NCBI RefSeq assembly: GCF_001677475.2
Contig: NZ_CP015229.1
DNA: 64,000 bases
DNA from: Escherichia coli
Lineage (GTDB): Bacteria > Pseudomonadota > Gammaproteobacteria > Enterobacterales > Enterobacteriaceae
Direction: 5' to 3' (one strand)
Within the stretch, counting starts at the first letter, position 1. Every line of letters begins with the position of its first letter. Positions 12,624 to 16,836 of the stretch are shown here, in pieces. The notes below the pieces were generated by a model. The model was not told where the DNA came from, did not search any database, and saw nothing but the letters and a program-made list of their open reading frames with translations. Position numbers and translations under genes: made by a program.

Positions 12624-13346
12624 ATGGGTAAAACCCAGCCCTTGCCAATATTAATTACTGGCGGAGGTCGTCGCATCGGCCTCGCCCTCGCATGGCATTT
12701 CATTAATCAAAAGCAACCGGTGATTGTCAGCTATCGGACACACTATCCAGCCATTGATGGACTGATTAATGCAGGTGCGCAGTGTATTCAGGCTGATTTT
12801 TCGACCAACGACGGTGTGATGGCGTTTGCCAATGAAGTACTAAAAAGCACCCATGGTCTGCGTGCTATTTTGCATAACGCCAGTGCGTGGATGGCGGAAA
12901 AACCGAGTGCGCCACTGGCCGACGTGCTGGCTTGCATGATGCAGATCCACGTTAATACCCCATACCTGCTCAACCATGCGCTGGAAAGATTACTGCGTGG
13001 GCACGGACACGCCGCCAGCGATATCATTCACTTTACCGATTATGTGGTGGAGCGCGGTAGCGACAAACATATTGCGTATGCTGCAAGCAAAGCGGCACTG
13101 GATAATATGACCCGCTCGTTTGCCCGCAAGCTGGCACCGGAAGTGAAAGTGAATTCTATTGCGCCATCGCTGATCCTGTTTAATGAACATGATGATGCCG
13201 AATATCGACAACAGGCGCTGAATAAATCACTGATGAAAACCGCGCCTGGCGAGAAAGAAGTGATCGACCTGGTCGATTACTTACTTATCAGCTGCTTTGC
13301 CACCGGACGCAGTTTCCCACTTGATGGCGGTCGTCATCTGCGTTAA
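12624..13346 (+). CDS. folM: Dihydromonapterin reductase / alternative dihydrofolate reductase (SDR family)
   Basis: ORF track 240 aa, N-terminal TGGGRRIG Rossmann motif. Confidence 0.9.
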   Translation: MGKTQPLPILITGGGRRIGLALAWHFINQKQPVIVSYRTHYPAIDGLINAGAQCIQADFSTNDGVMAFANEVLKSTHGLRAILHNASAWMAEKPSAPLADVLACMMQIHVNTPYLLNHALERLLRGHGHAASDIIHFTDYVVERGSDKHIAYAASKAALDNMTRSFARKLAPEVKVNSIAPSLILFNEHDDAEYRQQALNKSLMKTAPGEKEVIDLVDYLLISCFATGRSFPLDGGRHLR

Positions 13347-13678
13347 TGCAGCTTTATCCAGCATATAATCAACACCCATGCGCTTATTCCCCAGCACGCA
13401 ACAGAACCAACAAAAGCAGCGGGTAAGCGCATCATTCCGGTGAAATACCACAGCGACACCAGGTAAACAAAATAGGGAATAATCGACCACATGCTAAAAA
13501 TGATGGTTGCGCGCAAGGCTTCAATGCCGCGTTCGCTGGCAACAATATAATGCGCGATGAGTGCAAAGGTCGGGAAAAGTGGTATCAGCCCGGCGATATA
13601 ATAATTTTTCGTTTTTGCTAAAACACCAATCAACAGCACTACCAGCGCACCGAGCGCGGCTTTGATTACCAGCCCCAT
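13343..13678 (-). CDS. ydgC: GlpM-family inner membrane protein
   Basis: ORF track 111 aa; 3' end overlaps folM stop (convergent). Confidence 0.85.
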   Translation of the reverse strand: MGLVIKAALGALVVLLIGVLAKTKNYYIAGLIPLFPTFALIAHYIVASERGIEALRATIIFSMWSIIPYFVYLVSLWYFTGMMRLPAAFVGSVACWGISAWVLIICWIKLH

Positions 13679-13806
13679 CTTTTTACCTTAACACTTCCAT
13701 AACAAGTCATCAGTAGAATACCTGATGAAACCTTGTTTAGAAACGATTGATAGTAAGTAAAAACAGCGGGGTGTATTGTGACGTTTTTATATCTACCGTG
13801 AATGTT

Positions 13807-14526
13807 ATGAACACTATCGTATTTGTGGAAGATGATGCGGAAGTCGGTTCACTGATTGCTGCGTACCTGGCAAAACATGATATGCAGGTTACCGTGGAAC
13901 CGCGCGGCGACCGGGCCGAAGAAACTATTTTGCGAGAAAATCCGGATTTGGTGTTACTCGACATCATGCTACCAGGCAAGGACGGCATGACCATTTGTCG
14001 TGATTTACGCGCAAAGTGGTCCGGACCGATTGTTCTTCTAACCTCTCTCGATAGCGATATGAACCACATCCTGGCACTGGAAATGGGTGCCTGCGACTAT
14101 ATTCTCAAAACGACGCCCCCTGCTGTTTTGCTAGCGCGTTTACGTTTGCATTTGCGTCAGAATGAGCAAGCCACACTGACCAAAGGTCTACAGGAAACGT
14201 CTCTGACTCCCTACAAAGCCCTGCATTTCGGCACATTGACCATCGATCCCATCAACCGCGTAGTCACCCTGGCTAACACTGAAATCTCGCTCTCGACAGC
14301 TGATTTCGAATTATTGTGGGAATTAGCTACCCATGCCGGGCAAATCATGGACCGCGATGCATTGCTGAAAAATTTACGCGGCGTCAGTTATGACGGACTG
14401 GATCGTAGCGTGGACGTGGCTATTTCGCGGTTAAGAAAAAAACTGCTCGATAACGCCGCAGAACCTTATCGCATTAAAACTGTGCGTAACAAAGGCTATC
14501 TATTTGCGCCTCATGCATGGGAATAA
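13807..14526 (+). CDS. rstA: Two-component response regulator RstA (OmpR family)
   Basis: ORF track 13747..14526; likely start at MNTIVFVEDD (239 aa); receiver and winged-helix domains. Confidence 0.9.
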   Translation: MNTIVFVEDDAEVGSLIAAYLAKHDMQVTVEPRGDRAEETILRENPDLVLLDIMLPGKDGMTICRDLRAKWSGPIVLLTSLDSDMNHILALEMGACDYILKTTPPAVLLARLRLHLRQNEQATLTKGLQETSLTPYKALHFGTLTIDPINRVVTLANTEISLSTADFELLWELATHAGQIMDRDALLKNLRGVSYDGLDRSVDVAISRLRKKLLDNAAEPYRIKTVRNKGYLFAPHAWE

Positions 14527-14529
14527 GCG

Positions 14530-15831
14530 ATGAAAAAATTGTTTATCCAGTTTTACCTGTTATTGTTTGTCTGCTTCCTTGTGATGTCTCTGCTGGTTGG
14601 GCTGGTGTACAAATTTACCGCCGAACGCGCGGGCAAACAGTCGCTGGATGATTTGATGAACAGTTCGCTGTATCTGATGCGCAGCGAATTGCGTGAGATC
14701 CCCCCACACGACTGGGGTAAGACGCTGAAAGAGATGGATTTAAATCTCTCTTTCGATCTGCGTGTCGAGCCACTGAGTAAATACCATCTTGATGATATTT
14801 CCATGCACCGACTGCGTGGCGGCGAAATTGTCGCCCTGGACGATCAGTACACGTTTTTGCAACGTATCCCGCGCAGCCACTACGTGCTGGCAGTTGGTCC
14901 TGTTCCTTATCTTTATTATCTCCATCAGATGCGATTGCTGGATATCGCCCTGATCGCTTTTATTGCTATTTCCCTCGCCTTTCCGGTGTTTATCTGGATG
15001 CGTCCGCACTGGCAGGATATGTTAAAACTGGAAGCAGCGGCGCAACGATTTGGCGATGGGCATCTCAATGAACGTATCCACTTTGATGAGGGTTCGAGCT
15101 TTGAACGACTTGGTATCGCATTTAACCAGATGGCCGACAATATCAACGCCTTGATTGCCAGCAAAAAACAGCTTATTGACGGTATCGCTCACGAACTGCG
15201 AACACCGTTAGTGCGCCTGCGTTATCGACTGGAGATGAGCGATAACCTGAGCGCCGCCGAATCCCAGGCGTTGAATCGCGATATCAGTCAACTTGAAGCT
15301 TTAATTGAAGAGCTGCTGACTTATGCCCGACTCGATCGCCCACAAAACGAGCTTCATCTTAGCGAACCAGACCTGCCGTTGTGGCTGTCAACGCATCTGG
15401 CAGACATTCAGGCAGTAACACCCGATAAAACGGTACGGATTAAAACGCTCGCGCAAGGCCATTATGCGGCGTTGGATATGCGCTTAATGGAGCGCGTGCT
15501 GGATAATTTGCTCAATAACGCCCTGCGCTACTGTCATTCAACGGTTGAAACCAGCCTGCTACTGTCGGGGAATAGAGCGACATTAATTGTTGAGGATGAT
15601 GGCCCAGGGATTGCCCCAGAAAACCGCGAACATATCTTTGAACCTTTTGTTCGCCTCGATCCCAGCCGGGATCGCTCAACCGGCGGCTGCGGGCTGGGGT
15701 TGGCAATTGTCCACTCTATAGCACTAGCAATGGGCGGTACGGTTAATTGTGACACCAGCGAACTGGGTGGTGCCCGCTTCTCGTTTAGCTGGCCGTTATG
15801 GCATAACATCCCGCAATTTACCTCTGCTTGA
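14530..15831 (+). CDS. rstB: Sensor histidine kinase RstB
   Basis: ORF track 433 aa; H-box IAHELRTPL, HATPase motifs. Confidence 0.9.
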   Translation: MKKLFIQFYLLLFVCFLVMSLLVGLVYKFTAERAGKQSLDDLMNSSLYLMRSELREIPPHDWGKTLKEMDLNLSFDLRVEPLSKYHLDDISMHRLRGGEIVALDDQYTFLQRIPRSHYVLAVGPVPYLYYLHQMRLLDIALIAFIAISLAFPVFIWMRPHWQDMLKLEAAAQRFGDGHLNERIHFDEGSSFERLGIAFNQMADNINALIASKKQLIDGIAHELRTPLVRLRYRLEMSDNLSAAESQALNRDISQLEALIEELLTYARLDRPQNELHLSEPDLPLWLSTHLADIQAVTPDKTVRIKTLAQGHYAALDMRLMERVLDNLLNNALRYCHSTVETSLLLSGNRATLIVEDDGPGIAPENREHIFEPFVRLDPSRDRSTGGCGLGLAIVHSIALAMGGTVNCDTSELGGARFSFSWPLWHNIPQFTSA

Positions 15832-15872
15832 CACTACGCGCACGGTGGTCAAGTCACCACCACTGTGCTATA

Positions 15873-15895
15873 AATTAAGGATGTTGTAACTAAAG
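15873..15895 (+). promoter_or_regulatory. Replication terminus site TerB-like Tus-binding sequence (AATTAAGGATGTTGTAACTAAAGT) overlapping tus promoter
   Basis: Contains Ter core GTTGTAAC and flanking consensus; located immediately upstream of tus as expected for TerB. Confidence 0.75.
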
Positions 15896-15906
15896 TGGTT
15901 AATATT

Positions 15907-16836
15907 ATGGCGCGTTACGATCTCGTAGACCGACTCAACACTACCTTTCGCCAGATGGAACAAGAGCTGGCTGCATTTGCCGCTCATCTTGAGCAACACA
16001 AGCTATTGGTTGCCCGCGTGTTCTCTTTGCCGGAGGTAAAAAAAGAGGATGAGCATAATCCGCTTAATCGTATTGAGGTAAAACAACATCTCGGCAACGA
16101 CGCGCAGTCGCTGGCGTTGCGTCATTTCCGCCATTTATTTATTCAACAACAGTCCGAAAATCGCAGCAGCAAAGCCGCTGTCCGTCTGCCTGGCGTGTTG
16201 TGTTACCAGGTCGATAACCTTTCGCAAGCAGCGTTGGTCAGTCATATTCAGCACATCAATAAACTCAAGACCACGTTCGAGCATATCGTCACGGTTGAGT
16301 CAGAACTCCCCACCGCGGCACGTTTTGAATGGGTGCATCGTCATTTGCCGGGGCTGATCACCCTTAATGCTTACCGCACGCTCACCGTTCTGCACGACCC
16401 CGCCACTTTACGTTTTGGCTGGGCCAACAAACATATCATTAAGAATTTGCATCGTGATGAAGTCTTGGCACAGCTGGAAAAAAGCCTGAAATCACCACGC
16501 AGTGTCGCACCGTGGACGCGCGAGGAGTGGCAAAGAAAACTGGAGCGAGAGTATCAGGATATCGCGGCCCTGCCACAGGACGCGAAGTTAAAAATCAAAC
16601 GTCCGGTGAAGGTGCAGCCGATTGCCCGCGTCTGGTACAAGGGAGATCAAAAACAAGTACAACATGCTTGCCCTACACCGCTTATTGCGCTGATTAATCG
16701 GGATAATGGCGCGGGCGTGCCGGACGTTGGGGAGTTGTTAAATTACGATGCCGACAATGTGCAACACCGTTATAAACCACAGGCGCAGCCGCTTCGTTTG
16801 ATCATTCCACGGCTGCACCTGTATGTTGCAGATTAA
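15907..16836 (+). CDS. tus: DNA replication terminus site-binding protein Tus
   Basis: ORF track 15895..16836; true start likely [10 protein letters not shown] (309 aa). Confidence 0.95.

Follow-up and report, generated by a model that had tools for sequence, protein, structure and literature searches.

Interlocking stop codons at the folM/ydgC and tus/fumC junctions of Escherichia coli and a conserved fumC-sense RNA hairpin encoded within tus

We analyzed two neighbouring pairs of convergent genes, folM/ydgC and tus/fumC, together with an RNA hairpin of the fumC transcript that is encoded inside the tus coding sequence (CDS), in a 64,000-nucleotide stretch of Escherichia coli DNA (RefSeq assembly GCF_001677475.2, contig NZ_CP015229.1; hereafter, the window). 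The genes and associated features are collected in Table 1. The original prediction of a 4-bp overlap between the genes of each pair was confirmed: at both junctions, the list of open reading frames (ORFs) and the raw sequence give a shared TTAA. Only its central TA is common to the two stop codons, and each outer base is the third position of the partner's last sense codon (CGT Arg/CAT His for folM/ydgC and GAT Asp/CGT Arg for tus/fumC), so that T or C at the first base and A or G at the last are silent for both genes.

Table 1 Genes, stop-codon tetramers, termination regions and RNA hairpins at the two convergent junctions (window positions; termination regions placed from K-12 data).
Feature	Position	Strand	Details
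folM CDS (dihydromonapterin reductase)	12624..13346	+	Ends CGT TAA; TAA at 13344-13346
ydgC CDS (GlpM family)	13343..13678	-	Stop TAA is the reverse complement of 13343-13345
folM/ydgC TTAA tetramer	13343..13346		Contains both stop codons
tus CDS	15907..16836	+	ATG at 15907; mechanical ORF start GTG at 15895; ends GAT TAA; TAA at 16834-16836
fumC CDS (class II fumarase)	16833..18236	-	Stop TAA is the reverse complement of 16833-16835
tus/fumC TTAA tetramer	16833..16836		Contains both stop codons
fumC-sense RNA hairpin (predicted fold)	16780..16821	-	5' arm 16821..16810 CAGGUGCAGCCG; 18-nt loop; 3' arm 16791..16780 CGGCUGCGCCUG; then UGGUUUAUAAC
Rho-dependent termination region antisense to folM	12700..12820, centre ~12758	-	MG1655 1681110; ~585 nt past the ydgC stop
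Rho-dependent termination region antisense to tus	16480..16600, centre ~16543	-	MG1655 1684895; ~290 nt past the fumC stop
Weak terminator-like ydgC 3' hairpin	13251..13281	-	AGTAATCGACCAGGTCGATCACT (13281..13259) and U-rich tail TCTTTCTC; 62-92 nt past the ydgC stop, inside folM codons
Terminator-like tus 3' hairpin	16912..16963	+	Folding energy ~-19 kcal/mol; then TTTTTTGG (T6); 76-127 nt past the tus stop, inside fumC codons

The reading frames and stop codons are real, because the Pfam match of each of the four proteins extends to its C-terminal end. GlpM is matched in full (1-107 of 107) and ends at residue 111 of the 111 residues of the ydgC protein; Ter (296/296) extends to residue 306 of 309 in Tus; adh_short_C2 (236/236) extends to residue 238 of 240 in FolM; and the FumaraseC_C match reaches residue 460 of 467 in FumC. 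It had been noted that reassignment of a start or a stop would remove the overlaps, but the full-length families fix the stops, and a change of start cannot affect a 3' overlap. Identical overlaps are annotated at both pairs in the MG1655 RefSeq entry (NC_000913.3, offset from the window by 1,668,352 across the folM-fumC stretch). The possibility that the overlaps are annotation artefacts resulting from wrong frames or stops was rejected on the grounds of the full-length families, the conserved C-termini of orthologues and the agreement with RefSeq, and its probability is negligible. A 101-nt probe for the tus/fumC junction was found at no less than 95% identity in 5,423 of 5,426 complete E. 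coli genomes, and the best E. coli matches to positions 12400-18400 are 98.1-98.5% identical.

Both overlaps belong to a known, ordinary class, and the pairs have already been annotated and catalogued. The convergent stop-codon overlaps of prokaryotes (Lillo & Krakauer 2007, PMC2174442) share the geometry of folM/ydgC and tus/fumC; their lengths spike at 4, the modal value, which arises from CTAA, TTAA, CTAG and TTAG. Both of the features that define membership in that class were found here, and there is no difference in kind. The same study counted 58 convergent overlaps in E. coli and already asked where the terminators of such genes are located, with intrinsic terminators predicted for only ~20% of them. 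By simple arithmetic, 58 junctions in 4.64 Mb give a chance expectation of ~2.5 pairs within 3.5 kb, and thus two neighbouring overlaps are not remarkable. A crude ORF map of the window contains 11 convergent junctions with gaps of 354, 24, -4, -4, 48, 44, 35, 43, 46, 0 and 565 nt. Three of the 11 have no spacer, and the usual state is a spacer of 24-48 nt with one hairpin. That usual arrangement, which is absent from both overlapping pairs, is seen at positions 6596-6619, where a typical 24-nt spacer between ORFs 5561..6595 (+) and 6620..8008 (-) is filled by the GC-rich hairpin GACGGCCTCCGCAGAGGCCGTC. At the third spacerless junction (57046-57051), ORFs 55036..57048 (+) and 57049..57621 (-) abut as TAATTA with a gap of 0, the same geometry as that of tus/fumC in Enterobacter.

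What is added here to the class is the history of the two junctions over ~80 Enterobacteriaceae. A Tus scan with one genome per species matched ~225 genomes, from which 80 Enterobacteriaceae loci with flanks reaching both junctions were used. The folM/ydgC offset is -4 in 40 of the 42 loci carrying both genes; the remaining two show -7 and an apparent +159 that reflects a truncated match. All four allowed tetramers (TTAA, TTAG, CTAA and CTAG) occur among the related loci, and the -4 has been maintained through conservation of the C-terminal residues of both proteins, with the outer bases free to vary. The tus/fumC offset, counted over L001-L081 with the MG1655 reference locus included, is more variable: -4 in 45 loci (Escherichia, Citrobacter, Salmonella, Kosakonia, Kluyvera and others), 0 in 19 (Enterobacter and Lelliottia, with TGATTA) and -11 in 12 (Klebsiella and Raoultella), with the rarer states -14 in one locus, +10 in two, +35 in one, and a 3.9-kb insertion in another. 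Apart from the insertion, tus and fumC are always tightly apposed (-14 to +35). The loss of the spacer at the two junctions is therefore old, and the drift of the offset indicates that the exact -4 at tus/fumC is not itself preserved or selected. In each pair, the facing genes have lost their spacer and their stop codons interlock in the palindrome-like (T/C)TA(A/G). The interlock is nearly cost-free, since the two genes have no more than the central TA in common and each outer base is synonymous for the partner. With no DNA left between the genes, transcripts continue into the partner CDS, and their 3' ends are made there.

Folding of the four 3' regions revealed a GC-rich hairpin with a 12-bp stem in the fumC-sense RNA, which begins 11 nt past the fumC stop and is encoded by tus codons 292-295 (QAQP) and 302-305 (RLHL). 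The stem-loop has a folding energy of -20 to -24 kcal/mol, and the window segment that contains it folds at -34.5 kcal/mol (z = -3.85). Within this segment (16760-16840, minus strand), a T at ~16769, which is C in K-12, adds an outer helix, UGCAACAU...GUGUUGCA, and deepens the fold to the latter value.

The hairpin is kept in all 81 aligned Enterobacteriaceae sequences, down to 68% Tus identity. In the alignment, 96.5% of the stem cells are paired, compared with 19-45% in controls slid by 1-3 columns; changes on both sides were found at 5 of the 12 stem pairs, and none of 500 shuffles matches any of five measures. RNAalifold recovers the same hairpin independently. The clearest exchange links the wobble base of Arg302 with the first base of codon 295, in the combinations CGG/CCG (Pro), CGA/TCG (Ser), CGC/GCG (Ala) and CGT/ACG (Thr), so that this single pair passes through C-G, U-A, G-C and A-U. 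Codon usage tells the same story. The summed codon entropy of the eight stem codons is 4.55, a value that was never reached or undercut in 100,000 draws of other tus columns matched for amino acid. All four Pro codons occur at Pro291, but CCG is used at Pro295 in 67 of 69 sequences; most arginines elsewhere in tus are CGC or CGT, but 75 of 82 sequences have the rare CGG or CGA at Arg302. In 77 of 81 sequences, the more stable fold is that of the fumC-sense RNA (mean -23.8 versus -17.9 kcal/mol for the tus-sense RNA), and one-sided changes that pair only in the fumC sense (G.U-type) outnumber the reverse (A.C-type) by 39 to 13. Thus, the stem codons of tus are under selection beyond that on the protein, and the strand on which the hairpin acts is that of fumC.

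The inverted repeat lies wholly inside tus, and the tus-sense RNA also folds, at the mean energy given above. The repeat might therefore serve tus or the DNA itself, either as an mRNA structure that slows ribosomes or stabilises the tus message or as a palindrome bound by a protein. We consider this very improbable. The tus-sense form carries an invariant C.A mismatch, and both the folding comparison and the 39-to-13 bias of one-sided changes point to the other strand. Compensatory changes that run through all four Watson-Crick pairs argue for base pairing and not for two protein half-sites.

Natural controls bear on the same question. A word-indexed protein search for distant Tus returned only close Tus proteins of Citrobacter and Escherichia; six distant tus genes (30-58% identity) were reached by a representative search and contig look-ups. 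None of the six contains a comparable hairpin within its CDS (best -12.8 versus -24.5 kcal/mol), although the PRLH(L) or PRLQL motif is retained in four of them, which argues further against a role in tus. In four of the six loci, a clear hairpin instead follows the tus gene, bordered by A and T runs in three of the four; in two of these four loci, fumC is still the convergent neighbour, at ~74 nt (L084) and ~46 nt (L086, with a fragmented fumC). The locus with the 3.9-kb insertion, Klebsiella indica (L054, 6830-10810), provides a further case. The insertion separates tus from fumC, contains two large ORFs (461 and 474 aa), and is accompanied by a duplication of ~70 bp of the tus 3' end, such that a copy of the hairpin region stands beside each gene. 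In this single case, the fumC-side copy keeps 11 of the 12 pairs, whereas the copy inside tus has lost two outer pairs by synonymous changes.

Published K-12 data indicate where the transcripts of these genes end. The only entries for MG1655 positions 1681000-1686999 in the Rho termination dataset of Adams et al. (PMC7815308, supplementary file 2) are two minus-strand Rho-dependent termination regions, one inside folM (Rho score 3.64, p = 2.4e-5) and one inside tus (Rho score 5.62, p = 5.8e-7). For the tus region, the read counts upstream and downstream are 83 and 16 in untreated cells and 36 and 39 with bicyclomycin (PMC7815308). Recomputation from the read counts returned the same scores, (39/36)/(16/83) = 5.62 and (66/79)/(17/74) = 3.64. 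In the fumC-sense RNA, the C:G ratio between +40 and +160 past the stop is 1.25-1.53, and between +240 and +360 it is 1.50-1.65, a modest excess in raw ratios. Sequence scans revealed no canonical intrinsic terminator at or near either junction; a general promoter and terminator scan of 12000-19000 gave 10 terminator-like sites compared with 8.0 expected, none of them at the junctions, and missed the long-loop fumC hairpin.

These data bear on the termination signals and 3' ends that the original prediction had proposed for the pairs. Its statement that there is no room for independent terminators holds insofar as there is no intergenic space, but the determinants of the 3' ends sit inside the partner CDS, separately for each gene. 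Shared 3' ends did not materialize: the ends are staggered and overlapping, with Rho regions in tus and folM and the fumC-sense hairpin in tus. The 3'-end mapping suggested as a check is answered in part by the published K-12 data, which provide the two minus-strand Rho regions and no discrete Term-seq end near either junction. Transcriptional interference within the pairs, also proposed, is possible.

Taken together, the overlaps are real, old and ordinary, the 3' ends are made inside the partner CDS, and the most probable role of the fumC hairpin is to mark and protect the fumC mRNA at its mature 3' end, a reading that we hold with fairly high confidence. Termination of fumC and ydgC, which in K-12 is Rho-dependent and occurs a few hundred nt inside tus and folM, would proceed in the same way in the source strain. 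Ribosomes would leave at the fumC stop, allowing the 12-bp hairpin to form; Rho would load downstream of it and terminate transcription inside tus ~240 nt further on; and exonucleases would then trim the Rho-terminated tail back to the hairpin, which would shield the message. According to published data, the overlapping tails at these junctions pair into double-stranded RNA, which is cut by RNase III. The hairpin may double as a weak terminator.

The closest known counterpart is the class of Rho-dependent transcripts described by Dar & Sorek (2018, PMC6061677), whose steady-state ends lie just past a stable stem-loop without a U tract, with rut sites just downstream; such termini can fall within downstream coding regions, and mixed cases of weak intrinsic and Rho termination were noted. 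The fumC hairpin resembles this class in being an early stem-loop, shortly past the stop, that is stable and has no U tract, with read-through that is Rho-sensitive in K-12 and perhaps also in the modest excess of C over G downstream. It differs in that it is antisense to the last 18 codons of a convergent gene, on which it imposes a visible constraint: the Arg codon is held to a rare form, and the Pro, Ser, Ala or Thr at residue 295 co-varies with the Arg302 wobble. In addition, the steady-state 3' end at the fumC hairpin is a prediction. The contribution of the present analysis is the conserved 3' hairpin of fumC within the tus CDS, which neatly exemplifies an element of a known kind.

A different role for the same structure would be that of the fumC terminator itself, acting either as a non-canonical intrinsic terminator or as a stem-loop that positions head-on polymerase collisions. 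The GC-rich 12-bp stem is followed by GGUUUAU, and where distant relatives have a spacer, hairpins of the canonical terminator type stand at the corresponding position. Those post-tus hairpins have the form of bidirectional intrinsic terminators, and the fumC hairpin corresponds to them in its position relative to the fumC stop, but it is not intergenic, has a long loop and has no U tract. A canonical intrinsic terminator was rejected: the loop of 16-18 nt exceeds the usual ~3-8 nt, and in place of a U-rich run of 7-8 nt the tail reads N-GG-UUU-A-U-A. Its few U's do not adjoin the stem, and they come from the Lys290 codon, which is unconstrained (AAA in 59 sequences and AAG in 20). As for collisions, a stem-loop in the nascent RNA is needed for convergent polymerases to collide at well-defined positions (10.1101/2022.10.23.513370), and the mixed weak intrinsic and Rho cases mentioned above (PMC6061677) provide a further precedent for the hairpin as terminator. 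As far as they are described in 10.1101/2022.10.23.513370, the collision-type bidirectional terminators of Ju et al. (2019) lie between convergent genes and are Rho-independent. The fumC hairpin lies inside tus, and read-through past it is Rho-sensitive in K-12. Because it is upstream of the tus stop, the hairpin cannot serve tus; if it worked in both directions, tus transcription would stop before the tus stop codon. We therefore regard the terminator role as a minority possibility, clearly less probable than that of a protective 3' end.

Several points weigh against the protective role of the fumC hairpin. Its loop is long for this role, too. The Rho regions are resolved only to within a few hundred nt, and the curated tables of PMC7815308 list no discrete Term-seq 3' end at MG1655 1681000-1686999, perhaps because expression was too low; the mature fumC end predicted just 3' of the hairpin (~MG1655 1685125-1685132) is thus unconfirmed. 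The tus duplex RNAs of highest abundance map beyond the Rho region, at 470-670 nt from the fumC stop, and a separate antisense promoter inside tus is possible. The covariation counts come from related sequences and can be inflated by shared ancestry. All of the transcript data are from K-12 and not from the source strain, in which an insertion sequence (IS) upstream of fumC, described below, may alter the gene's own promoter region and transcription.

Transcript overlap at both pairs is documented. Table 1 of the ExcludonFinder study (2025, PMC12288877) lists folM-ydgC and tus-fumC among 165 convergent excludons of E. coli, a list restricted to pairs whose transcripts overlap in 50% or more of 58 RNA-seq sets. 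RNase III-cut duplex RNA per gene amounts to 140-683 reads per million (RPM) for tus, 37-870 for ydgC, 18-46 for folM and 18-33 for fumC (Huang et al., PMC7373196, Table S1b). In total RNA of the wild type, sense and antisense levels are 26.6 and 12.3 RPM for tus, 103.3 and 3.9 for fumC, 19.6 and 3.1 for folM, and 4.4 and 3.4 for ydgC (PMC7373196, Table S1c). Perfect 21-22-nt duplexes (PMC7373196, Table S3) map in the window to ~16167-16190 and ~16338-16364 in tus, ~12895-12918 and ~13299-13323 in folM, and ~13575-13598 and ~13641-13664 in ydgC; those near the ydgC 5' end suggest that plus-strand transcripts cross the whole of ydgC.

Such data raise the question of whether the overlaps are kept as a means of antisense control, with strong transcription of one gene repressing its partner through polymerase collisions and RNase III. 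For tus, induction of fumC would increase read-through and RNase III cleavage of the tus/anti-tus duplex and so lower Tus, which would make the fumC tail a working regulator. Both pairs appear in the excludon list (PMC12288877), the tus duplex RNA falls in the authors' range for the ~top 13.5% of genes (PMC7373196), tus antisense reaches about half of the sense level, and the folM/ydgC -4 is conserved family-wide. No experiment, however, ties the expression of one partner to that of the other, and whereas mutually exclusive expression is the functional core of the excludon concept, what folM-ydgC and tus-fumC share with excludons is the transcript overlap published for K-12. Overlapping 3' ends are in any case found in 276 of 370 convergent operons of E. 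coli (~75%), with a mean of 286 nt (Conway 2014, PMC4161252). Moreover, the overlap is not required, as the offset at tus/fumC varies freely and distant relatives carry a terminator-bearing spacer. The conservation at folM/ydgC follows from the conserved C-termini of the proteins and from outer bases that can change synonymously. We thus consider antisense control unlikely. If it were true, the replication fork trap would be tied to metabolism or stress, and the hairpin in the tus codons would set the amount of read-through.

The overlaps as such change little, being a textbook consequence of compact bacterial genomes. The locus provides a worked example of how, when facing genes lose their spacer, a 3'-end signal moves into the CDS of the neighbour. 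That the RNA structure of one gene dictates the codon choice of its convergent partner, and even the amino acid at residue 295, is well supported and has perhaps not been described before. The dual constraint on Tus is measurable: eight codons hardly vary, an uncommon Arg codon is retained, and a wobble base seven codons from residue 295 changes together with it. The constraint is relevant to any recoding or deletion of tus or of the fumC 3' end, as a 'silent' change in tus could alter the fumC mRNA; fumC is also a marker in multilocus sequence typing. A search of Rfam with 12000-19000 gave no meaningful match, and a literature search for a described fumC terminator returned nothing relevant, although the dyad symmetry may have been mentioned in the fumC/tus sequence papers of the 1980s.

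The other 3' ends are less well marked. A custom scan of the four 3' regions for hairpins with T-runs gave three candidates. The ydgC 3' hairpin is moderately conserved, with 87% of cells paired in 42 sequences versus 10-56% in slid controls, and its covariation is found mostly at the two outer pairs. The tus 3' hairpin, with 70% of cells paired versus 52-60% in slid controls, is not conserved across genera and is a candidate tus terminator in Escherichia only. Comparative folding revealed nothing conserved downstream of folM. The intergenic region between ydgC and rstA contains a 7-bp inverted repeat, TCATCAGTAGAATACCTGATGA (13707-13728), that the general scan marked as terminator-like in either orientation. 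Downstream of folM it is the nearest plus-strand site of this kind, 360 nt past the stop and just upstream of rstA.

Two further observations concern the flanks of fumC and tus. A 1,441-bp IS of the IS3 family (18367-19807), with orfA (18385-18939) encoding a helix-turn-helix protein and orfB (18936-19775) an rve domain, occupies the fumA-fumC intergenic region in the orientation opposite to fumC, with 13 bp between it and the fumA stop on one side and 127-130 bp between it and the fumC start on the other. The 4 bp at MG1655 1686715-1686718 are duplicated on either side of it. The IS should prevent read-through from the fumA promoter from reaching fumC. TerB (15874-15896), shortly before the tus ATG, differs from K-12 TerB at two positions outside the GTTGTAACTA core (ATTAAGGATG... 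versus AATAAGTATG...).

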